Source: Candidatus Eiseniibacteriota bacterium (GTDB lineage Bacteria > Eisenbacteria > RBG-16-71-46). From it: DNA of 31,676 nt. The notes beneath the pieces are model-generated. The model was not told the DNA's origin, searched no databases, and was given only the letters and a program-made list of their open reading frames with translations. Below are positions 5,929 to 29,839 of this stretch, piece by piece. Each line of letters starts with the position of its first letter. Position 1 is the first letter of the stretch. Where the stretch lies: NCBI GenBank assembly GCA_031366795.1, contig JANLOX010000279.1, positions 1-31,676 on the forward strand, read 5' to 3'. A program made the position numbers and the translations under genes.

Positions 5929-7176
<1,248 letters not shown>

Positions 7177-8912
7177 AGAACCGCGCGCGCCGTGGCGGCC
7201 GCGGTAGGGGAAAGCCGAGCGGCCATCATCCGCAGTCGCCGCGGCCGCAGACGCATTCATCGTTCTGGAGCTGGCTGAAGCGGCTGTTCCAGCCGCCGCC
7301 GCAGGCGAAGCGCAAGCTGCCGCCCGGGGCTACGCCATCGGAATCGGAAGCCCGCATCTTCGCGGAATTCGCCAAGCAGTACGACATCGCGTTCCAGCGT
7401 CCCGACCTGCTCAAGCTGGCGCTGACGCACCGCTCCTACCTCAGCGTCACGGGGCAGGGCGCGCGCGAATCCAACGAGCGCCTCGAGTTCCTCGGTGACT
7501 CGGTGCTCGGGCTCGTCACCAGCGAGTTCCTCTATCGCGAGCACCCCTCGGAGCATGAGGGGCAGCTCACCAAGACCAAGTCACTGCTCGTTTCCAAGGC
7601 GATCCTGTCGCGGCGCGCGTTGGCCATGGGGCTCGGCAAGTACGTGCTGATGAGCCGTTCCGAGAGTGATTCGGGCGGCCGCCAGCGGCTGTCGATCCTC
7701 GCCGATGCGTTCGAGTCGGTGATCGGCGCCATCTACCTCGACCAGGGTTTCGAAGCCTCGCGGCACTTCATCATGCGCTGGCTGTTGCGCGATTCGCGCG
7801 AGATTGCTTCGGACAAGCGCCACACCAACTACAAGAGCCACCTGCAGGAGTTCGTTCAGAGCACGTACCGCACGCATCCGGTCTACCGGATTCGCAGCGA
7901 GGCGGGCCCCGATCACTCGAAGCAGTTCAATGTCGAAGTGATCGTCGGGCGGCGCGTGCTGGGCACCGGGCGCGGGCGCAACAAGAAGGACGCCGAGCAG
8001 GCCGCGGCGCGTGATGCCCTGGCGCAGGCCGAGGGCGGAGATCAGGCGGAAGAGACCAAGCGCGTCCCGCGCGGCGGGGAGGCCGTGACCTCTGCGAGCG
8101 CTCCGATGCCGCTGCGGCGTATTGAGCCGGAACCCGACGAAGCGTTCGATGATGAGCCCGATGCCATCGGGACGCAGGGGCGGGGAGCCGTTGCCGGCGA
8201 AAGCGCCGAGGAAGGTGAGGGACTTCGTCGTGGACGCCGCGGGGGACGGGGCCGTCGCAATCGTCGGGACGAAGCACCGCCGGCGGTGGGCACCGAAGCT
8301 GTCCCGCGCGGGCAGGCAGGCGCACCGGTCGCGGCCAGGCCGGTGGGTGCGCCGGCCTACCGCACCGCGCCGCCGCCAGTCGATCCTGCGACACAGCCGC
8401 ACGGCCTGTCGCGCCCGCCGCTCGATGTGCCTGTGGATCGCTCGTCGATCGAAGAGGACGCGGACGAGATCGGACGCCCGGAGAACTTGATCGAGGACAG
8501 CAGCGCCGCGTTCCCCCCGACGGACCGCTACATCGGGGGACGCACGGTGGAACGCGTGGGACGCCCGAGTTGGGAGGACACGCCGCGCCGTCCGGCGGAG
8601 ACCGAGCGTGTGCGGCCGCCCGCCTTCGGTTCACTCAGCGAGGAGCACTATGACGACGATGACGGCTTCGGGCGCGCACGGGAACCGGTGAAGGCGCGTG
8701 AGCGCGTGAGCGAGCCGGTTCGCGAAGTCCCTGCGCAACGGCCTGTCCCTGCTCCTGAGCCACCCGTCGAATCGCGCAAGGAGTCCTGGACGGAGCCGGC
8801 GCACGGCGAGGACCACGACGACATCGAGCCGCAGCCGGAAGTGAAGCCGTCGTCGCCGGCGCGCGTGGAGCCGGTCGCGACGTTTGGCCGCAAGCGCACA
8901 CGCCGGTAGTTC

Positions 8913-8952
8913 AAAAAAAGAGAGCCGCCCGCGCGGGAAGCCGTGCGGGCGG
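8913..8952. terminator. Hairpin after rnc, probably bidirectional
   Basis: CCGCCCGCGCGG-gaag-CCGTGCGGGCGG (8925-8952), 12 bp with one G-U on the + strand; A7 at 8913-8919 gives a U-tract on the - strand. Confidence 0.6.
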
Positions 8953-8954
8953 GA

Positions 8955-8988
8955 TAACAAAATCGGGAGGCTTGCGCCTCCCGTTTAT
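8955..8988 (-). terminator. Intrinsic terminator of the candidate sRNA (may also act on the + strand)
   Basis: On the - strand CGGGAGGC-GCAA-GCCTCCCG then ATTTTGTT; the GNRA loop occurs only on the - strand; the + strand hairpin is followed by TTTAT. Confidence 0.75.
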
Positions 8989-9109
8989 AATTAGCTGTCG
9001 CCCCTTTCTAACGGGGCTGGCCCCTCGGAATTCCAGGTCCCGCCAGTGGGAACGACAGACTTTTTTGCCGCCGGCGCAATCCCTAACCGTGCGATCGCGC
9101 GGGGCTCAC
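8956..9109 (-). ncRNA. Candidate sigma-54-dependent small RNA (about 155 nt), family not recognised
   Basis: Bounded by a promoter and a terminator with no credible ORF; 5' hairpin GCGCGAUC/GAUUGCGC pairs through G-U only on the - strand; four-way junction closed by CUGUCG/CGACAG. Confidence 0.6.
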
Positions 9110-9114
9110 AGTGC

Positions 9115-9135
9115 ATTATAGCATGCAGCATGCCA
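9115..9135 (-). promoter_or_regulatory. Overlapping sigma-54 (-24/-12) and extended -10 sigma-70 promoters
   Basis: TGGCATGctgcATGCT (9135-9120; GG-N10-GC) runs into TGcTATAAT (9123-9115). Confidence 0.7.
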
Positions 9136-9160
9136 TCCATCATTTATTCGCCTCGATTCG

Positions 9161-9337
9161 CGTAAGTTCAATTCGATAAATAGTTTAATACCAGTTCACT
9201 GGGCATGCGCACCAGCCGTCCTGGGCAACGTTTGGGACACTTTGTCTTAATGAAACCGGTTTCAAGTAGGCTAATTTAATGTGCCGCATGCGATTAAGAT
9301 CTAAGTGTCAGATCTGGCCGCTGTGGGACTTTGTGTC
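9161..9337. promoter_or_regulatory. Putative enhancer region: IHF-like AT-rich site and two candidate activator-binding sites
   Basis: GATAAATAGTTTA (9175-9187) resembles WATCAANNNNTTR; TGGGAC-N4-TGTC occurs at 9233-9246 and 9324-9337. Confidence 0.4.
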
Positions 9338-10690
9338 GCTGTTGGCCTCGTCCGGCGCGGAGCGCTTGCGCGCCGCCATGCGGTGAAGCGTGCGGCGCGA
9401 AATTCCCAGAATGGTGGCCGCCTGCGTGTAGTTTCCGCCCGTGTGCTCCAGTACGCGGTCCACGTAGCGCTCGACCATCTTGTCGAGCGTCACGAGCGAT
9501 GTGGCGTCCGCCGGCTCGTCGAGCCGCAATGACTCCGCGGTGATGACGGTCGAGGTCGACAGCACCATGGCGCGCTCGATCACGTTGGCCAGCTCGCGCA
9601 CATTGCCGGGCCACTGGTGGGCCAGCAGCAATCGCATGGCTTCAGGAGCAAAGGTCTTGTTGACCTGGCCCTGCTCCGCGGCGTAGTGGTGCAGGAAGTG
9701 ATCGATCAGGAGCTCGATGTCGTCGCGCCGTTCCCGCAAGGGCGGCAGCTCGATCTTGACGACGTTCAAGCGGTAGTAGAGATCCTCACGGAAGCGCCCA
9801 GTGCGAACCAGGTTCTGCAAGTTCTGGTGTGTGGCCGCGACCAGCCTGACGTCGACTTCAATTTCGTCATCGCTGCCCACGGGCTTGATGCGATGCTCCT
9901 GCAGCACCCGCAATAGCTTGGCCTGCAGGGGAGTCGACAGATCGCCAATTTCGTCGAGGAACAGCGTGCCCTGGTCCGCTTCCTTGAACAGCCCAATGCG
10001 TGTTGACATCGCACCGGTGAAGGCGCCGCGCACGTGGCCGAACAACTCGCTCTCCAGCAGCCCCTCGGGGATAGCCGAGACGTTCACCGTCACGAATCGC
10101 TTCCCGCTGCGTGGGCTGCGATCGTGCAGTGAACGCGCGACGAGTTCCTTGCCCGTGCCGCTCTCGCCGATGATCAGCACGTTGGTGCGGGTCGCGGCCA
10201 CGCGCGCGACGGTCTTGAACACGTCGAGCATCTGCGGCGAGCGTCCGACGATGCGCTCGATCCGGGGTGACCGCTCGCCCTTGGGTGCATCGATCATCGT
10301 CTGGGTGGCCACACGCTTCTCGATGGCGCGTTCGAGCACCGCGCCCAGCGAGGCCAGCGACGGCGGCTTGGCGAGATAATCGAATGCGCCGGTCTGGATC
10401 GCTTCCATCGCCGAATCCATGCTGGCGTAGCCCGTGATCACGATCACCGGCAGATCGGGCGTGCGCGCGACCACATGGCGCAGCAGGTCCAGTCCATTGC
10501 CCCGGCCCAGGTTCAGGTCCGTGAGCACGACGTCGAAATGGGTCAGTTCGAGGCGCTCGATCGCGCTCTCGAGACTGCCCGCGGTCTCGACCTCATGGCC
10601 GAAATGGCGCGCCATCGCCTCGAGCGCCCGTGCGGTGAGCGGTTCGTCGTCGACAACCAGGATGCGCGCCGGTGCGCGTTCGGTTTCCAT
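9308..10690 (-). CDS. NtrC/AtoC-family sigma-54-dependent response regulator (REC-AAA+-Fis HTH)
   Basis: ILVVDDE, VLTD (phospho-Asp), GESGTGKE, ESELFGHVRGAFTGA, LFLDEIG, RFREDLYYRLNV, WPGNVREL, HTH AATILGISRRTL. Confidence 0.96.
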   Translation of the reverse strand: METERAPARILVVDDEPLTARALEAMARHFGHEVETAGSLESAIERLELTHFDVVLTDLNLGRGNGLDLLRHVVARTPDLPVIVITGYASMDSAMEAIQTGAFDYLAKPPSLASLGAVLERAIEKRVATQTMIDAPKGERSPRIERIVGRSPQMLDVFKTVARVAATRTNVLIIGESGTGKELVARSLHDRSPRSGKRFVTVNVSAIPEGLLESELFGHVRGAFTGAMSTRIGLFKEADQGTLFLDEIGDLSTPLQAKLLRVLQEHRIKPVGSDDEIEVDVRLVAATHQNLQNLVRTGRFREDLYYRLNVVKIELPPLRERRDDIELLIDHFLHHYAAEQGQVNKTFAPEAMRLLLAHQWPGNVRELANVIERAMVLSTSTVITAESLRLDEPADATSLVTLDKMVERYVDRVLEHTGGNYTQAATILGISRRTLHRMAARKRSAPDEANSDTKSHSGQI

Positions 10691-10803: not shown

Positions 10804-12474
10804 ATGTGGGTCATTGTTGGACTCGTTCTGGGGCTGGCCACGTCGACCGCTGCCGCTCCGTCCGCGACCCCCGACTCCGCGAGCTATGCCGGCAACGAAC
10901 TGGCGCTGCGCGCTTATGCGCAGGGACGCCTGTTGGAGGCGCGCGGCAGTTATCGCGAAGCGCTCGGGGAGTACATCCGTGCCCTGTCGCTGGACCACCA
11001 CGCCGCCGCGGTGCCACGCCGCGTGGCTGAATTGGTCGGGCGAATAGGCGACGCGCCGAGTGCGATCGAGTACGCCGATAAGGCGCTGGCCATCGACTCT
11101 ACCGACGCGCGCAGTCTGTGGATCAAGGGTGCAGCCCTGATGTCCTTGGGGCGCACGCCGGAAGCACTTGCGCCGCTGGTCGCCTGCGTCAACGTGGACT
11201 CGACGCACGCCGAGTACGTGGCGGCACTCGCGCACGCCGCGGAGGCTGCCGAACGCATCGACATTGTGGCGCACGCTTATGAGTTGGCGGTCGAGCTCGA
11301 TCCCGACGACGGCGAGAGCTGGTTCCAGCTGGCGGCCGCGCAGGCGCGCCTGGGCCGGTTCGCTGAAGCCGACTCGAGCATGCGGCAGGCGGCGGACCTG
11401 TCGCCGGTGCGGCCGGGGCAATTGTTCCTGCAGGGCTGGATCGCCGAGAGCCTGGGCCGTGACGATGAGGCGATCGAACGCTACCAGAGCCATCTCGAAA
11501 CGCACCCCAACGACCAGACGACACGCCGCCGCCTCGTGAACCTGCTGGCGCGGCAGAAGCGCTGGGCGTTGGCGTTGCCCGAAGCCCAGCGCGTCACGCG
11601 CGCGGATCCCAACGACTGGGAAACGCTCGCCGTCGAGGTCGAGATCGCGATTCGCGCGGGCAAGACGGCCGAAGCGAAGTCCGCGATCGACCGTCTCGAG
11701 CGCCAGGCCGAGCACGATGTCGATCTCGCGGGAGGGGTGTGCTCCTTGCTGATTCGCTGCAAGCGCGTGCCGGATGCGATCCAGTTCGCCGATGGTTGGG
11801 CGAGCCGGCATTTGCGCGACCCGGATGGCCCGCTGTTGGCCGCGCGCGCCCGCGCGGTCGCCGGGCAGCGCGAGGCGGCGTTGCCGTTCGCGCGGGCCGC
11901 CGTGCTGGCGGCGCCGGATTCGCTGTCGCCGCGGCTGCTGCTCGCGCGACTGTGCACTGACCTGCATCGTTATCCCGAGGCCGAGTCCTCGCTCACCGTG
12001 CTGGCGGCGCGGCGTCCGGCGGAAGCGGTCGTGCTGCTGGAAGTGGCAAGCCTGCGGGAGGATCGCGGCGACACCGAGCATGCCGAGGCGGCGGCGCGTG
12101 ATGCCTTGAAGCTCGAGCCGGACAATGCGCGCCTGCTGAACTTCCTCGGCTACCTGATGGCCGATCATGATCGCGGCCTCGATGAGGCCGAGCGCATGAT
12201 CCGGCGCGCCCTGGTGGCCGAGCCCGACAACGGCGCCTACGTCGATTCGATGGGGTGGGTGCTGTACCGCAAGCACCAGTTCGAGGCCGCCCGCACCCAG
12301 CTCGAGCGGGCCGTCGAGTTGACCGCGGGGGACCCCGTGGTGCGGGAGCACCTGGGCGATGCCTATGTGGAGCTCAAGCTCAAGGACAGGGCCCGGGAGC
12401 AGTACAAGTTGTGCCTCGAGCGCGATTCCGGCAACACGCGTGTGCGGGCCAAGTTGGCCGGAATCCCCCGATGA
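10804..12474 (+). CDS. Exported tetratricopeptide-repeat protein
   Basis: Hydrophobic N-terminal signal-like segment; repeated A..Y..AL.LDP TPR units; C-terminal LNFLGY.MAD..LDEA...YVDSMGWVLY block typical of periplasmic TPR proteins. Confidence 0.85.
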   Translation: MWVIVGLVLGLATSTAAAPSATPDSASYAGNELALRAYAQGRLLEARGSYREALGEYIRALSLDHHAAAVPRRVAELVGRIGDAPSAIEYADKALAIDSTDARSLWIKGAALMSLGRTPEALAPLVACVNVDSTHAEYVAALAHAAEAAERIDIVAHAYELAVELDPDDGESWFQLAAAQARLGRFAEADSSMRQAADLSPVRPGQLFLQGWIAESLGRDDEAIERYQSHLETHPNDQTTRRRLVNLLARQKRWALALPEAQRVTRADPNDWETLAVEVEIAIRAGKTAEAKSAIDRLERQAEHDVDLAGGVCSLLIRCKRVPDAIQFADGWASRHLRDPDGPLLAARARAVAGQREAALPFARAAVLAAPDSLSPRLLLARLCTDLHRYPEAESSLTVLAARRPAEAVVLLEVASLREDRGDTEHAEAAARDALKLEPDNARLLNFLGYLMADHDRGLDEAERMIRRALVAEPDNGAYVDSMGWVLYRKHQFEAARTQLERAVELTAGDPVVREHLGDAYVELKLKDRAREQYKLCLERDSGNTRVRAKLAGIPR

Positions 12475-23452: not shown

Positions 23453-26400
23453 ATGCCCATGTGGATAAGCCTCGGCCTTTCGGTCGCCCTGCTGGTTAAC
23501 GTACCGTTCTTCGGCCGCGTCGATGTCCAGCGCATGCTGCGGTCCCGGCACACCCATCCCACAGCGGCCGACTCGCTGCCCCCACCGTGGCGCAATGCCT
23601 CCCGGCTCGCCCTCGAGAACCAGTTCGTCCAGGCGGAGCTGCCGGACCTGAGCCGCGGACCGGGGACCACGTTGCGGTTCAACGCCGACCCGCGCGACCT
23701 CCACATCCAGGTGGACCCCGACTCGGGGACCCTGCGCACGGCGCCGGAGTTCGGGGACGTCGCGGTGGGTGAAGGCGCCTCGTGGCCGCTCGGCCCCTAC
23801 GGCAGCCTCGCGATGTCGCGCGCGTTCCAGCGCAACTGGAACAAGAATTCGCTGGCGAACATCAACAGCTTAGGGATCAGCACGCCGCAGGGTCCGCGCC
23901 AGGGCGGTTACTCGATCGCGCTCCCACGGCTGCCCGGCAAACTCGGGAATTTGGCGGGCGCGGGTGGCCCTTCAATCAACGTCAGTGGTTCTGAGGCGAT
24001 TCGCATCTCGGGCACCAGCAACTGGACCAACCAGCAGGTCGGCCCGCTGGGGCAGAAGCGTTCGTTGTTCCCTTCGCTCGATATGCAGCAAGACTTAAAT
24101 ATCCAGCTCGAGGGCCAGCTGTCCGACCGCATCCGCGTCAACCTGTTGCAGAACTCCGCCAACCAGATCCCGCTGTCGAACCGCATCGCCATCAACTACC
24201 GCGGCGATGAAGACGCATTGTTCCAGCAGGTCGATCTCGGCAACACCAACCTGACCCTGCCCGGCACGCAGTACGTCTCCTACAGCGGCAAGAACGAAGG
24301 CTTGTTCGGCATGAAGGCGACCTCGCGGCTGGGGCCGCTCGACTTCACCCTGCTCGCCAGTAAACAGGAGGGACGCAGCGAGCGGGCGTCCTATGGCGGC
24401 GGGGCGTCCAAGCAGAACTCGACCATCCGCGACCTCGAGTACATCCACGGCGTGTACTTCTTCCTCAATGATCCCGCCGAGGGCCGCTACGAAATCGCCG
24501 ACGCGACGCTCAGGGTGTTCATGGACGACGGCATCTCGAGCAACGACGTGGGTGCGCTACAGCTGGGTTTGGCGATGCCCGATCCCACCGTGGCGGCAAA
24601 TGTTGCCCGGGTGACCCATGAGGCAGATAGCCTTGCGAGCTATCCCCCGGGGTCGCGCGACCCTGGACCCCTGGCGCTGCGTGGCAACTTCAACCTGCTG
24701 ACTCCGGGCGCGGACAAGGACTACGAGATCCTCGGCGACATCTACGGCACCGGCTGGAAAATCATCCGCCTGACGCAGCCGTTGATCGGCAGCCAGCGTC
24801 TGGCGGTGACCTATGAGCGTCGCAAGGTGCTCGCGGGAAATGCGCTGGGGCCCGCGGTCAATGTCGGCGCGAGCTCGCTCTTGGATCTCACCACGGACCG
24901 CAATGGAGAAAAGCGGCTGTTGATGAAGTTGATCAGGATTCCGAACGACATCATCGGGCCGCTGGCGCCCGGGGGAGTAGCTGCCCCGTTCGACACGACC
25001 AAGGCGCTGTTCCCGGTGCGCGAGCTCGAGATGCGCAACTTCTACAACCTCGGCGGCCAGCGCATCGACCCCACCACCTTCAAGCTGACGATTCGCAAGA
25101 CGCTGACCGAGCCGCCCAAGGTGAACGCCAATACCACCGTCGGCCAGGTGCCCTACATCGAAATTCTCGGGCTCGACAACCTCAACGAGTCCATCGACCC
25201 GCCGCAGAAGAAAGCGCATGACGGCAAGGTGGACGGCACCGTGTTGTCCAGTTCGCTGCGGACGTTCATCGATTACGAGAACGGCACGCTGTTCTTTCCC
25301 GAGCCGCGGCCGTTCGCGCCGCGATTGGGTCCGGGCGGCAACGCGTTCGACCAGGCGGTCAGCAATATCCTGTTCCGCCGCGACAGCCTGACGGGGCCCC
25401 AGGACTCGGATACTGAACCGAACAGCGCGCTGTACTCGCACTACAACATTCAAGGGGACATCGACGCGCGCTACTTCATGAGCGTCGAGTTCACCGCCGC
25501 GCGCGCCTCGGGTGAGGTTTCGCTCGGCCGCGGCAACCTGCTCGAGGGCTCGGAAGTCGTCACCATCAACGGGACCGCCCTGCATCGCGGCACCGACTAC
25601 GAGATCGACTACGACCTGGGCCGTATGACCTTGAAGCGGCAGTTGGGTCCCGCCGACAACCTCAACGTCGACTACTCGTACGCGCCATTGTTCCAGCAGG
25701 CCGGCCGCACACTGATCGGCAGCGCCTTCAGCCTGCAGGGCAAGGACCGCAGCTTCGGCGGCGCGTTTATGTACGAAAGCCGGGGCGCCCAGGACCTGCG
25801 CCCGCGACTCGGCGAAGAACCTGCGCGCAGCTTGATCGGCGACCTCAACACCGACTGGATGTTTAGGCCGCAGTGGATGACGCGCGCCATCGACATGCTG
25901 CCGGGCGTGCGCACCACGGCGCCCTCGGATTTTCGTTTCCAGGCCGAAGTGGGCGCATCGTTCCCGAATCCCAACACGCGCAACCAGGTCTATATCGACG
26001 ACATGGAAGGCGTGCGCGATGCCGTTTCGCTGACGATGGACCAGAGCCACTGGCGCTGGAGCAGCGTGCCGAAGCGCGCCGTGACGGTATCCGACGGCCG
26101 TGCCGGAATCATCGAATCGATGCTCGACGTCGAGGATCGGGCCGACGGTCACTTCAAGAACGCCGAGACGCACTGGTATTCGCCGTATGCCGTGGTCAAG
26201 GAAGGCGACCTCAAGCCGACGCTGACCGATGCGCAGGGCAAGCAGAACACGCGGCAGGTGCTCGCGATCTCGGTGCCGAGGCGCCCGCTGACCTCGAACT
26301 CGAACCCCGCCACGCTCGACACGTTGTGGTCGGGGCTGACGTATTCGCTCGATCCCGTGGGGCTCGACCTCACCAAGTCGCAGTTTCTCGAACTGTGGGT

Positions 26401-29400
26401 CAACGACTTCAACGACCACCACGACCCCGGCACTGCAAGCCCGCGCATCCGCGGACGCCACGTCAAAATTCACATCGATCTGGGCAAGGTCAGCGAAGAC
26501 CAGATGCGCGCGCCGAACGAGCGGCCGAACAAGCTGCCCGACTCCGAGGACAAGCAGCCGCGCGACGGCCAGCTCGATGTGACGCCCGGCCGCAATGAGG
26601 ACACGGGGTTGGATGGGTTGCTCGACGACGAGGAACTCACGGCGATCACGCCTGTCGACGGCGTCTACCGCGATCTCATGACCTCGAGCTCGAGCGATCC
26701 CGAGGGCGACGACTTCGAAACGCCGGGGAGCAACTCAACCTTCAAGGAAGAGATCGATGCGCGCCGCTACCTGCGCACGAACGGCACCGAAAAGGACAAG
26801 AACCTCAATCCCTACCCCGAGACCGAGGACTTCAACCTCAACGGCAATCTCGACACGGACGAGAACTACTTCGAGTACACGATCGACCTCGGCGATGACG
26901 CCGGCCGCTACCTGGTGACGGACCTGCAACAGCTGCGGAATTCGGCGGAGCCGGGCTATTCAGCCGTGAGCATCGACAACGGTTGGCGCCGTTATCGCAT
27001 CCCAGTCAACGATTCGTTGCGCATCCAGTTCGGCGTGCCGGACTTGAGCATCGCGCAGCATGTGCGCGTGTGGCTCGATGGGCTAACGCTGCCCGACCTG
27101 CCCGCGGATTCCACGCTGCTGGCCGGTAACAAGCACGTCGAGCGGCCGCTGCTGATGCTGGGCAGTCTCGACATCGTGGGCAGCCGCTGGCGTTCGGTCG
27201 CGCTCGATACCACGGAAGTGCGCGCCGGCTCGACGCTGACGCTCAACTCCGTGAACTCGGTCGACAACGCCGACGTCTACACCGCCCCGTTCGACCCCGG
27301 CCAGACGCGCAACGGCAACCAGGCGCTGACGCGGCGGGAGCAGTCGATCTCGCTCGAGTTCTCCCGGCTGCATGCCCAGAACGAGGTCGAGGCCTACAAG
27401 ACGTTCTCGCTGGATGAAGACTACAGCCGCTACGGCAAGCTCAACTGGTATGCGACCGGCTTCGACGTGCACGATTCGACGGGCGCGATCCGCAACCCCG
27501 GCCTCTATTACTTCGTGCGTTTCGCTTCCGATGAGCAGGGCCGCAACTACTACGAGTATCGCGCGCCGCTGCCGGTGTCGGCGGCGCCCCGCGGCACGGC
27601 GTGGCAGGAAGTTCAGCTCGAGCTCACCGAATTGTCCAACATCAAGCTCGACCGGCGATTCCCCACCGGCCGCGACACGTTGTTCGCGGTGCCGCGCACC
27701 GCAGGCTCGCTCGATACCCTGATCGTCAAGGGCAGGCCGTCGTTCACGCGGCTGCGGCGCATCTCGTTCGGTCTCGTGAACCTGCTGCCGGACGGCTACT
27801 ACCGCGATGGGCAGTTGTGGTTCAACGAACTGCGCGCAATCGATGTCGCCAAGGATCACGGCTACGCCGAACGCATCGCCGTCAACGGGCGGCTGGCCAA
27901 CCTGTTCTCATACAACCTGGCGTGGAACGGCCGGGACGAAAATTTCATCAGTGTCGGCGAGTCGCGCGGCAGCGGTACCGCGACCAGCAGCTTCGGCTTC
28001 AGCGGCAACCTCGACCTGCACCGGTTCTTCGAGGGCACCGGCATCATCCTGCCGATGACCTTCAACTACTCGCAGGGCCGCCAGAAGCCGCGCTACAGCG
28101 CCGGCGACGACATTGTTCGTGGTAATGCCGATATCGAGCGTAGCCAGACCTTCACCGACAACCGCTCGTGGGGGGTCTCCTACTCACGCACCTGGAGCTC
28201 GCGCGCTAATCCGCTGCTGCTCTACACCGTGGGTGGCCTGACCGCGAATTACAATGCCTCGAACAGCCACTCGTTGTCGCCGCTCGGGGGAGACCAGAAC
28301 AACTCCTCATCGGGAACGCTGAACTACAACATCGCGCCGCGGAACCTGCTGACCGTGCCGTTGTTGCTCACCAAATCAAAGTTCCACCCGTTGCCCGAGC
28401 GCGCCTATGCGAATTACCGCTTCGACCGCCGCGACGGCCAGACATCGGACCGCAACAACGTGACCGGTGGGCTCGATGACCGCGCACCCGTGACGGGCAA
28501 GTCCGGCACCATCAACATGGGCGCCGACACGCGGCCGCTCGACTTCTACCATCACCACATCGAAGCGGTGCGCAACACCAACCTGCGCGCCTACGACTCC
28601 AAGGGTAAGCCGATCGGCCTGGGACTGGGCCGCGTGATCACGTGGAACCAGACCAACGACGTGAGTTTTTCGCCGCACGTGCTGCAATGGCTGCGGCCGC
28701 AGTTGAGCTGGAATTCGCGGTTCGGCCAGAACAACGGTCCCGAGTTGTCTCAGGACTTGAGCATACGCTCGATCCAGAACGGCCAGCAGGGAACCGTCAG
28801 CTGGGAGTTGCCGTTCGGCAACCTGTCAAACGCGAACGCCATGACCCGCGTGCAACAGCAGGCGCCGCCGGATTCCGGGAAAGCCAGGCAGAAGCCCCAC
28901 GGTCCGGCGCTGTGGCGGCAGCTGACGGGGCGCCTCGGCACCATTCGCGGCGAGTTTGCGCTCAACCGCGGCAGCAGTTACTCGCGCGTCATCGGCATGC
29001 CGGGACCGCTCTACTTGTTTGGTTTGACCAGCGATCCGTCCATCAGCCCGGACTCCACCACGCGCGTCACCTCCGTCACCGGCAACCAGGCGACGACATC
29101 GACCGGCTGGCGGACCAGTGGCCGCACGACCGTGCAGTTGCCGTGGAGCATGTCGGCGGCCACAAGCGCGGAATTCGAGACGCGCTTCTCGACGGCCAAC
29201 GGCGCCGAGCGCGGCTCGGACCAGTTGCGCTTCCCCGACATCACGCTCGACTATGGCCAGATGGCGACCGTGTTGAAGATCAACAAGCTGATTCGCAATC
29301 CGCAGCTGCGTTCCGCGCTGAACCGGCAGGTCTCAAAGGAATACCAGGATGGCCACACCGTGAAGACCGGTGTGACGACGCTGACCCAATACCGTCCGTT

Positions 29401-29839
29401 GCTGTCGTTGTCGGGTGACCTGCCCAACGGCATGCGCCTCGAGCTTGGCAGCGAGCATCGCCATTCCGATCGCGAACTGCTCCAGCTCGGCAGCTCGCTG
29501 CAGCAGGACATCAACACCGACCTCAATATCAACCTGACCCGCAGCTATTCGCAGGGGCAGAAGGTCAACTTCTTCGGCAAGGAGAGCACGGTGCGCAGCT
29601 CGATCACGATCGGCATCAATTCGCAATACGAGCGACAGACCGGGCGCATCATCCAGAACGGCACCATCCGCAATCCCGTGCGCCGCGACCGCCTCTCGCT
29701 CAACACAACCGGCAGCTACGGCTTCAGCAGCAACGTGAGCGGCAACGCCACGCTCGGCTTCAGCCAGGATCGCGACCAGTTGCGCGACATCGTCCACCGC
29801 AGCATACGCGTCGAGCTGTCGGCGCGGTTCGGTCTGTGA
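23453..29839 (+). CDS. sprA: SprA/Sov-like giant outer-membrane beta-barrel (type IX secretion translocon homologue)
   Basis: 2128 aa with a signal-like N-terminus; SprA-type blocks Y.GDED...QQVDLGN, GLFGMK, GSEVVTING..L.RGTDYEIDY..G, YIDDMEG, WRRYRIP, LWFNELR; C-terminal amphipathic beta strands ending ..SARFGL. Confidence 0.85.
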   Translation: MPMWISLGLSVALLVNVPFFGRVDVQRMLRSRHTHPTAADSLPPPWRNASRLALENQFVQAELPDLSRGPGTTLRFNADPRDLHIQVDPDSGTLRTAPEFGDVAVGEGASWPLGPYGSLAMSRAFQRNWNKNSLANINSLGISTPQGPRQGGYSIALPRLPGKLGNLAGAGGPSINVSGSEAIRISGTSNWTNQQVGPLGQKRSLFPSLDMQQDLNIQLEGQLSDRIRVNLLQNSANQIPLSNRIAINYRGDEDALFQQVDLGNTNLTLPGTQYVSYSGKNEGLFGMKATSRLGPLDFTLLASKQEGRSERASYGGGASKQNSTIRDLEYIHGVYFFLNDPAEGRYEIADATLRVFMDDGISSNDVGALQLGLAMPDPTVAANVARVTHEADSLASYPPGSRDPGPLALRGNFNLLTPGADKDYEILGDIYGTGWKIIRLTQPLIGSQRLAVTYERRKVLAGNALGPAVNVGASSLLDLTTDRNGEKRLLMKLIRIPNDIIGPLAPGGVAAPFDTTKALFPVRELEMRNFYNLGGQRIDPTTFKLTIRKTLTEPPKVNANTTVGQVPYIEILGLDNLNESIDPPQKKAHDGKVDGTVLSSSLRTFIDYENGTLFFPEPRPFAPRLGPGGNAFDQAVSNILFRRDSLTGPQDSDTEPNSALYSHYNIQGDIDARYFMSVEFTAARASGEVSLGRGNLLEGSEVVTINGTALHRGTDYEIDYDLGRMTLKRQLGPADNLNVDYSYAPLFQQAGRTLIGSAFSLQGKDRSFGGAFMYESRGAQDLRPRLGEEPARSLIGDLNTDWMFRPQWMTRAIDMLPGVRTTAPSDFRFQAEVGASFPNPNTRNQVYIDDMEGVRDAVSLTMDQSHWRWSSVPKRAVTVSDGRAGIIESMLDVEDRADGHFKNAETHWYSPYAVVKEGDLKPTLTDAQGKQNTRQVLAISVPRRPLTSNSNPATLDTLWSGLTYSLDPVGLDLTKSQFLELWVNDFNDHHDPGTASPRIRGRHVKIHIDLGKVSEDQMRAPNERPNKLPDSEDKQPRDGQLDVTPGRNEDTGLDGLLDDEELTAITPVDGVYRDLMTSSSSDPEGDDFETPGSNSTFKEEIDARRYLRTNGTEKDKNLNPYPETEDFNLNGNLDTDENYFEYTIDLGDDAGRYLVTDLQQLRNSAEPGYSAVSIDNGWRRYRIPVNDSLRIQFGVPDLSIAQHVRVWLDGLTLPDLPADSTLLAGNKHVERPLLMLGSLDIVGSRWRSVALDTTEVRAGSTLTLNSVNSVDNADVYTAPFDPGQTRNGNQALTRREQSISLEFSRLHAQNEVEAYKTFSLDEDYSRYGKLNWYATGFDVHDSTGAIRNPGLYYFVRFASDEQGRNYYEYRAPLPVSAAPRGTAWQEVQLELTELSNIKLDRRFPTGRDTLFAVPRTAGSLDTLIVKGRPSFTRLRRISFGLVNLLPDGYYRDGQLWFNELRAIDVAKDHGYAERIAVNGRLANLFSYNLAWNGRDENFISVGESRGSGTATSSFGFSGNLDLHRFFEGTGIILPMTFNYSQGRQKPRYSAGDDIVRGNADIERSQTFTDNRSWGVSYSRTWSSRANPLLLYTVGGLTANYNASNSHSLSPLGGDQNNSSSGTLNYNIAPRNLLTVPLLLTKSKFHPLPERAYANYRFDRRDGQTSDRNNVTGGLDDRAPVTGKSGTINMGADTRPLDFYHHHIEAVRNTNLRAYDSKGKPIGLGLGRVITWNQTNDVSFSPHVLQWLRPQLSWNSRFGQNNGPELSQDLSIRSIQNGQQGTVSWELPFGNLSNANAMTRVQQQAPPDSGKARQKPHGPALWRQLTGRLGTIRGEFALNRGSSYSRVIGMPGPLYLFGLTSDPSISPDSTTRVTSVTGNQATTSTGWRTSGRTTVQLPWSMSAATSAEFETRFSTANGAERGSDQLRFPDITLDYGQMATVLKINKLIRNPQLRSALNRQVSKEYQDGHTVKTGVTTLTQYRPLLSLSGDLPNGMRLELGSEHRHSDRELLQLGSSLQQDINTDLNINLTRSYSQGQKVNFFGKESTVRSSITIGINSQYERQTGRIIQNGTIRNPVRRDRLSLNTTGSYGFSSNVSGNATLGFSQDRDQLRDIVHRSIRVELSARFGL

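Follow-up and report, generated by a model that had tools for sequence, protein, structure and literature searches.

Small RNAs (sRNAs) transcribed from sigma-54 promoters are the output of an enhancer-binding response regulator in the pairs GlmY/GlrR, Qrr1/LuxO, CrcZ/CbrB and NrsZ/NtrC, and GlmY, Qrr and CrcZ rely on RapZ or Hfq. Here we analyse a 31,676-nucleotide stretch of DNA (the window; contig JANLOX010000279.1, assembly GCA_031366795.1) from a Candidatus Eiseniibacteriota bacterium, in which an NtrC-type activator gene is followed by what is, judging from its conservation, very probably a genuine and uncatalogued sRNA gene of the sigma-54 type. The invariant loop of this short RNA is complementary to C-rich hairpin loops of a longer, predicted partner RNA in related genomes, and pairing between these loops appears to be its likely mechanism. 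G000 denotes the window's own genome, other G-numbers its relatives and L-numbers fetched loci.

The original prediction, made from the window, had placed the RNA beside GlmY/GlrR, Qrr1/LuxO and CrcZ/CbrB. The analogy holds for sigma-54 output of an activator. The mechanisms of GlmY, Qrr and CrcZ are unlikely here because neither RapZ nor Hfq was found in any of five genomes (96-100% complete, G000 included); unlike those three RNAs, this one has no Rfam match.

The layout is closer to that of Pxr/PxrR (Nla19) of Myxococcus xanthus (RF01812). According to the available sections of the papers on that system, an NtrC-like gene likewise lies immediately upstream, a sigma-54 promoter and an enhancer are predicted in the gap, and Pxr is a stem-loop RNA whose loop is functionally essential (PMC5684412, PMC11928866). 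Differences can also be observed. A kinase gene, pxrK, is adjacent in those sections and none is adjacent here; they mention no multi-site partner for Pxr. The window belongs to a different phylum, G000 gives no RF01812 match at E<=10, and the RNA is not a member of that family.

Promoter, fold and conservation of the small RNA

The activator (9308..10690, - strand) contains receiver, sigma-54 AAA+ and Fis helix-turn-helix domains. It was described at the outset as an NtrC-type protein with an intact GAFTGA motif and no neighbouring kinase, and both points hold: the motif is present, and no kinase was found among the 25 window open reading frames (ORFs) scanned. The gap from the activator to the promoter box measures 200 nt on the - strand and holds two palindromes. 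The distal enhancer site, GCGACA-CAA-AGTCCC (9325..9339, -), has one mismatch to GACA-N3-TGTC and lies within the last codons of the activator, and the proximal site is AAGACA-AAG-TGTCCC (9234..9248, -); these are the enhancer-like repeats of the original prediction (9339-9325 and 9248-9234). Enhancer and promoter are separated by a tract (9140..9200, -) that had been called IHF-like. It is AT-rich as described, but the IHF core CAA-N4-TTR is unmatched in G000; the core occurs in 21 of 55 homologous loci, compared with 1.7 in shuffles. The -24/-12 box TGGCATGCTGCATGCT (9120..9135, -) sets the predicted +1 at 9109, in agreement with the start proposed before, and rpoN is present in G000.

The predicted transcript begins with a variable 5' segment (9059..9109, -) consisting of a hairpin and an A6 run. 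It continues into a conserved rod hairpin (8995..9058, -) with a basal stem of CUGUCGYY/RRCGRCAG, an irregular middle and an upper stem, and ends in an intrinsic terminator with a GCAA loop (8955..8983, -; hairpin at 8983-8964) that faces the end of rnc and is terminator-like on the + strand too. The structured stretch of ~155 nt that had been proposed folds better than 200 shuffles (z -4.58). The apical loop of the rod is 12-13 nt long and contains the segment CCGAGGGG (9021..9028, -), a likely pairing seed that is invariant across a 26-row alignment while the stems vary.

The same anatomy was observed in ~45 genomes of one Ca. Eisenbacteria family, where the activator, two GACA-N3-TGTC sites, the -24/-12 box, a ~65-nt rod and the terminator recur. 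Activator orthologues occur in 38 of 89 family genomes at E<=1e-115. In loci fetched for the activator protein alone, the RNA core lies downstream in 28 of 30; one exception is cut by a contig end and the other by an insertion, and in each of these genomes the RNA lies on another contig. A sigma-54 box, searched for with TGG and TGC fixed beforehand, precedes 61 of 63 rows and has A at position 5 in 57 of the 61. The palindrome GSGACA-N3-TGTCSC was found at 124 sites in 59 of 61 rows (among them the second copies of two tandem pairs and a few wrongly picked boxes) against 5.3 in shuffles, with a 3-nt spacer only and peaks near -110 and -210.

Covariation downstream of the activator orthologues supports the rod. 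In the main alignment of 26 RNA copies, from which three divergent copies were omitted, rod and terminator have 96.0% paired cells and double changes in 15 of 29 pairs (nine in the terminator, six in the rod), and none of 500 shuffles scored as high. A model-fitted alignment of 63 distinct rows, which is biased in favour of the model and contains four partial hits on the opposite strand, has double changes in 21 of 29 pairs, 11 of them in the rod. The interchange of G-U, A-U and G-C pairs in the stems favours the - strand, as had been argued from a single G-U pair and the loop. Other parts of the earlier fold did not survive: the four-way junction has 73% paired cells, is matched by 129 of 500 shuffles and is 11.8 kcal/mol worse than the rod, and conservation of the 5' hairpin, the A6 linker and the CUAAUUAUAAA stretch ends at the closest relative. 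The 5' segment ranges from ~10 to ~140 nt among homologues, which gives predicted transcripts of roughly 120-260 nt. None of 55 homologous transcripts contains an ORF of at least 10 codons led by a Shine-Dalgarno sequence (SD).

Could the conserved region act only on its neighbour? The convergent rnc (7059..8909, +, given as the longest ORF, with a true start that is probably later) encodes RNase III with a long C-terminal tail and is the constant neighbour of the cassette, as the original prediction had it. There might be no free RNA at all, or the region might act only in cis on rnc, as a terminator, by antisense action or as a substrate of RNase III. In every case the cassette lies at the rnc 3' end, its terminator reads on both strands and the small RNA is a predicted transcript. 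A terminator, however, needs no sigma-54 box, enhancers at fixed distance, strand-specific G-U covariation or invariant loop, and rnc exists without the cassette in 29 genomes. We consider this explanation improbable.

No Rfam family reaches its gathering score in the window; the region gives chance-level matches only, and ten homologous loci yielded no match at E<=0.5. No description of the RNA was found in open full-text searches, which excluded supplements and most subscription papers; motif lists in the supplements of structured-RNA surveys could bear on novelty. The sole paper found that contains both 'Eisenbacteria' and 'small RNA' concerns, in its available part, CsrA variants (PMC13443453). 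Sequestration of CsrA by the short RNA would be a further possibility, since csrA was found in five of five genomes tested and ACGGA stands at the loop base in most homologues. Those genomes include ones with and without the RNA, however. Transcripts contain only 0-4 ANGGA motifs (one in G000), the invariant segment is without GGA, and the GG of ACGGA is base-paired and co-changes with its partner in divergent copies. With so few motifs and a paired GG, action of the CsrB type is highly unlikely.

Some features of the transcription unit stand apart. A second GC hairpin followed by T7 (8913-8950, -), unflagged in the scan that found the GCAA-loop terminator, is a possible backup terminator that would shield rnc from read-through. 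The basal arm TGTCGY of the rod (9051-9058) resembles the enhancer half-site TGTCSC (9234-9248), by coincidence or through some link to the activator. Two tandem rod copies lie behind one sigma-54 box at L217:2865-3060 (G012) and L026:3115-3341 (G016). In genus g21 (L013, L019, L020, L021, L023), the interval between the RNA and rnc terminators holds an extra conserved structured stretch with RYGUCCCCC. At L213:2070-2185 (G007:C7), a hairpin with the loop AAUUACGAGGGG, which is 11/12 like the window's loop, and a terminator but a different stem matches the covariance model of the RNA at E 3.6e-6. It sits between a flagellin gene and a flbT-like gene, as a relocated copy or by chance, and no hairpin of this type was found in other flagellin 3' regions among 30 loci.

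Range of the RNA and linkage to the activator

The covariance model matches 31 of 151 genomes of the phylum at E<1e-13, all within the window's family. Among 91 genomes of other families of the phylum the best match has E 1.9e-4, and two inspected matches are without the seed. A loose pattern was run against a genome collection; of 80 loci scored among at least 120, only two named Ca. Eisenbacteria records were strong. Both carry the RNA beside the activator, which places the family in Ca. Eisenbacteria, listed by NCBI as a candidate phylum; the original prediction had called the lineage FCB-related. With a stricter pattern 27 metagenome contigs match, and no match to the RNA was found in viral contigs.

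Presence of the RNA follows that of the activator. The RNA was found in none of 28 loci that have the TPR gene but no activator, and it is also absent in G058. In the window this TPR protein (10804..12474, +) is divergent from the activator and leads a TPR-ECF sigma-anti-sigma-HtrA operon; in activator-less loci rnc abuts this TPR-rpoE operon directly. In a quick tree built from 61 rows of the TPR protein, module state switches nine times, and at least six of the switches are forced by well-supported branches. The joint presence and absence observed across loci and tree indicates that activator and RNA behave as one cassette, gained and lost together, with one exception. The central claim of the original prediction, a sigma-54 RNA outside known Rfam families as output of the adjacent activator, is thus borne out by conserved promoter, enhancer and structure, by joint loss and by the presence of rpoN.

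A predicted multi-site RNA with complementary loops

The original prediction named no target, and the complementary sites described here are an addition of this analysis. A search for the complement of the loop across the family, with inspection of 40 sites, led to a locus that lies upstream of a gene resembling, by a weak Pfam match, those of outer-membrane beta-barrels. We examined this locus in 70 genomes, over 1.5 kb or 4.4 kb upstream (some shorter), and defined a cluster as at least three CCCCUCG within 700 nt. Clusters were observed in 14 of 34 module-bearing genomes, in none of 24 module-less genomes and in one of 12 whose module state was not called. The last of these, G042, has the activator, and the position of its RNA lies past the contig end. 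G041 and G056 hold the partner element on separately fetched loci.

The partner RNA is predicted to start at a sigma-54 box, to run for 600-800 nt and to contain 3-9 hairpins capped by CCCCUC. In G003 a terminator-like hairpin and an opposing gene come after it, which means that it is not necessarily a leader. Sixteen partner copies contain 96 CCCCUCG sites, compared with 4.2 in dinucleotide shuffles; they have no common frame or shared ORF, and the spacing of the sites is not a multiple of three. The long hairpins are capped by C(CCCCUC)G, with 43 of 57 sites in predicted hairpin loops, and the sites have a P(unpaired) of 0.85 versus 0.48 for other C-rich hexamers. They are accessible, complementary to the seed and co-occur with the small RNA. 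The enhancer motif of the short RNA lies upstream of only three of the 16 copies; the partner therefore probably answers to another activator.

It is possible that a protein, not an RNA, reads the CCCCUC hexaloops. The long RNA would then be a CsrB-like protein sponge and pilin leaders with the same sites (described below) protein-binding operators, and the short RNA would mask the CCCCUC loops or bind a protein of its own through the invariant loop. Protein-sponge RNAs typically array identical hexaloops on variable stems, and this is the layout of the partner, a point against loop pairing; the invariant loop suits recognition by a protein as well as pairing, and G000 has the short RNA without the partner. 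On the other side, exact complementarity to the only invariant segment and the restriction of the sites to module-bearing genomes would need a second explanation, and the cassette holds no candidate protein. We regard recognition by a protein as unlikely, though it is the most credible of the alternatives to loop pairing.

Relation of the partner RNA to a pilin-like operon

In other RNA-bearing genomes, the same place is occupied by an operon for an exported 176-residue protein. A model of this protein has a predicted local distance difference test score (pLDDT) of 89.7 (32.7 for the pilin-like fold predicted without an alignment). Its best structural matches are CfaB, Caf1 and the FimH pilin domain, with probability ~1 and a best E of only 1.1e-3, which makes it a candidate relative of chaperone-usher pilins such as CfaB, not at E<=0.001. 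Convincing Pfam matches were not found for the pilin-like, chaperone-like or usher-like proteins; the chaperone and usher labels are our own reading of the neighbouring genes. In a protein atlas the exported protein matches unnamed clusters, and the nearest named family is WxL.

The pilin-like gene occurs in 14 of 89 genomes, and leaders were read for 23 of 24 gene matches, one fragment being dropped. Leaders in G085, G004, G062, G102 and G012 contain two CCCCUC(G/A) sites, at -41 to -51 and at -20 to -25. No site was found in seven copies from G013, G008 and G017, three genomes without the RNA; G087 (one site) and G100 (none) were not called for module state. In two-site leaders, site 2 caps a hairpin in which the SD is part of the 3' arm, with a P(unpaired) of 0.71-1.0 for the site and 0.00-0.27 for the SD. 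Low SD access is not special to these leaders, as one site-less leader has it too. Duplexes between loop and sites are predicted at -14 to -20 kcal/mol, opening costs excluded.

The 5' ends of the partner RNAs align with the pilin leaders down to the former start codon. The RNA of G019 aligns with the intact operon of its sister G102 in three collinear pieces of 76-84% identity with frameshifts, and by this alignment it is a deletion remnant of the pilin operon. In the other partner copies only the 5' domain aligns to a pilin leader. The partner RNA thus appears, from sequence comparison, to be derived from the message of the pilin-like operon.

Three described RNAs invite comparison with the partner. 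SroC, a sponge of GcvB, likewise derives from its sRNA's own target mRNA; as far as the available text describes it, SroC is a fragment left by the decay of a live mRNA, and GcvB depends on Hfq (PMC4474525), whereas here the genome no longer has the parent operon, and 3-9 repeated loop sites stand under a sigma-54 promoter of their own. In Bacillus subtilis, RosA's G-rich regions trap the C-rich RoxS and FsrA, a pairing of two non-coding RNAs in a setting where Hfq has no global role according to the accessible part of the paper (PMC8216469). The polarity is opposite to ours, RosA has three G-rich regions and not an array of identical hairpin loops, and that part mentions no origin from a decayed target. 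Cuckoo RNAs of Alphaproteobacteria resemble the partner in that their hairpins are adjacent, vary in their stems and share one C-rich motif in every loop. In the text available, however, their loop motif is CCUCCUCCC, compared with CCCCUC here, and they have 2-4 hairpins, compared with up to nine sites (PMC4615179). We rejected the partner as a cuckoo RNA: its loops lack CCUCCUCCC, and seven partner loci gave no Rfam match at gathering score. By analogy, then, the partner would act as SroC or RosA does and has the appearance of a cuckoo RNA, and it fits neither family.

The RosA comparison raises the reverse polarity, in which the long C-rich RNA would be the regulator (anti-Shine-Dalgarno, cuckoo-like) and the short G-rich RNA would serve it as a decoy, in the way that RosA does for RoxS. 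CCCCUC could indeed pair with G-rich ribosome-binding sites, for example in flagellin leaders. However, the short RNA has the wider distribution and occurs without the long one, the same sites stand in cis in intact mRNA leaders, and the long RNA looks derived from pilin mRNA. This polarity seems quite unlikely.

Proposed circuit and points against it

We favour, at somewhat better than even odds, a model in which an activator-driven RNA pairs by kissing loops and is titrated by a sponge derived from its own target. In response to a signal, a kinase would phosphorylate the activator, which would bind the two GACA-N3-TGTC sites and drive synthesis of the ~155-nt RNA from 9109, a step that we consider highly probable. 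The GAGGGG loop would then kiss the CCCCUC loops of other RNAs over 6 bp (up to 8-9) without Hfq, a step that we consider probable. One ancestral target would be the leader of the chaperone-usher pilin-like operon, with pairing tuning its translation. The sign of this effect may slightly favour repression over activation, because the ribosome footprint covers the site and there is no evident strand invasion of the SD hairpin. In several lineages the operon would have decayed, but its promoter and leader would have been kept and have acquired additional sites, and the result would be a multi-site sponge that titrates the small RNA; we judge the chances of this last step to be evenly balanced. 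A sponge that buffers the short RNA would imply further targets.

Several observations weigh against this model. In G000, whose assembly is 96% complete in 474 contigs, no multi-site partner RNA, pilin-like gene or conserved target was found. At the partner locus, 20 of the 34 module-bearing genomes are without a multi-site RNA, four of which (G085, G004, G102, G012) hold the two-site pilin leader there instead. The distribution of clusters gives a Fisher p of 1.5e-4, which overstates the association, the kin being non-independent. The two-site leader is absent in four of nine RNA-bearing genomes with the pilin gene (G061, G018, G088, G084; two of these have one site before a second gene), and five of nine versus none of three genomes is too few for significance. 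The final G of CCCCUCG closes the partner hairpin, leaving only six bases free, and the CC and GG of the seed are predicted to pair with each other. No compensatory change between RNA and site is visible because the loop never varies. The exception to joint gain and loss is G012, where enhancer-like sites, box and two tandem RNA copies are present and the activator is absent at the locus. Runs X1 and X2 (share 0.15) each have one contig of 151-153 nt over the core; these come from relatives, give neither strand nor ends and were not used as evidence. In the activator's own leader, CCCCUCGG occurs in three of 31 loci compared with four of 3019 background windows, a post hoc result in which one word of the same composition scored equally and which does not extend to G000, where CCCCUCGG is absent.

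Other candidate targets and neighbouring features

A duplex scan of G000 showed no enrichment near gene starts, and several candidates were rejected. Sites in the rho leader are unconserved in 30 genomes, and the two-site leaders of C171 and C367 of G000 are not retained in relatives. A site in the type IV pilA leader, which forms one arm of a hairpin in cis, occurs in two of 27 RNA-bearing leaders and in none of 12 from module-less genomes. A flagellar link was dropped, as the presence of flagellin does not track the RNA. Further pattern searches gave many background matches in both groups and are leads only.

Side observations from these searches concern other leaders and activators. Complements of the seed in activator 5' regions (L014, L035, L009, L024) hint weakly at possible negative feedback. 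A sigma-54 type IV pilin leader stands behind a PilR-like activator in L543 (G000:C86:1-600); its cis hairpin is of the GAGGGUC/GACCC type, which recurs in many relatives. Flagellin 5' leaders (L261-L290) share a GGCAGAAYGCC hairpin, and a flbT-like gene is next in several loci. Two more activator paralogues, in L544 (G000:C48:600-1400) and L545 (G000:C203:29300-30500), have sigma-54 boxes and long non-coding tracts behind them, which are candidates for further RNAs or long leaders.

Elsewhere in the window, the charged C-terminal tail of RNase III (8030-8909) is long, contains no Pfam domains and is found family-wide. A 2128-residue SprA/Sov-like translocon, a component of the type IX secretion type (23453-29839; TIGR04189, E 1e-163), lies near lptFG and pilT.

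Significance

The most far-reaching reading, to which we give slightly less than an even chance, is that an Hfq-free sRNA controls a pilus operon by kissing loops and that the promoter and leader of the decayed operon became a sigma-54 sponge of up to nine hairpins. One family would then show the stages from intact mRNA (G102) through fresh remnant (G019) to elaborated array (G044). Bacterial sponges in the cited literature, in its available parts, either carry between one and three sites or derive as fragments from live mRNAs. If the model is correct, bacteria would have an equivalent of the pseudogene sponges and multi-site microRNA sponges of eukaryotes, and the stages in between could still be seen. 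A kissing pair of six bases that sits on modular hairpins and needs no chaperone could easily be rebuilt and tested in E. coli. For this uncultured phylum, it would mean a defined circuit of regulator, RNA and target, of which we found none in the literature searched.

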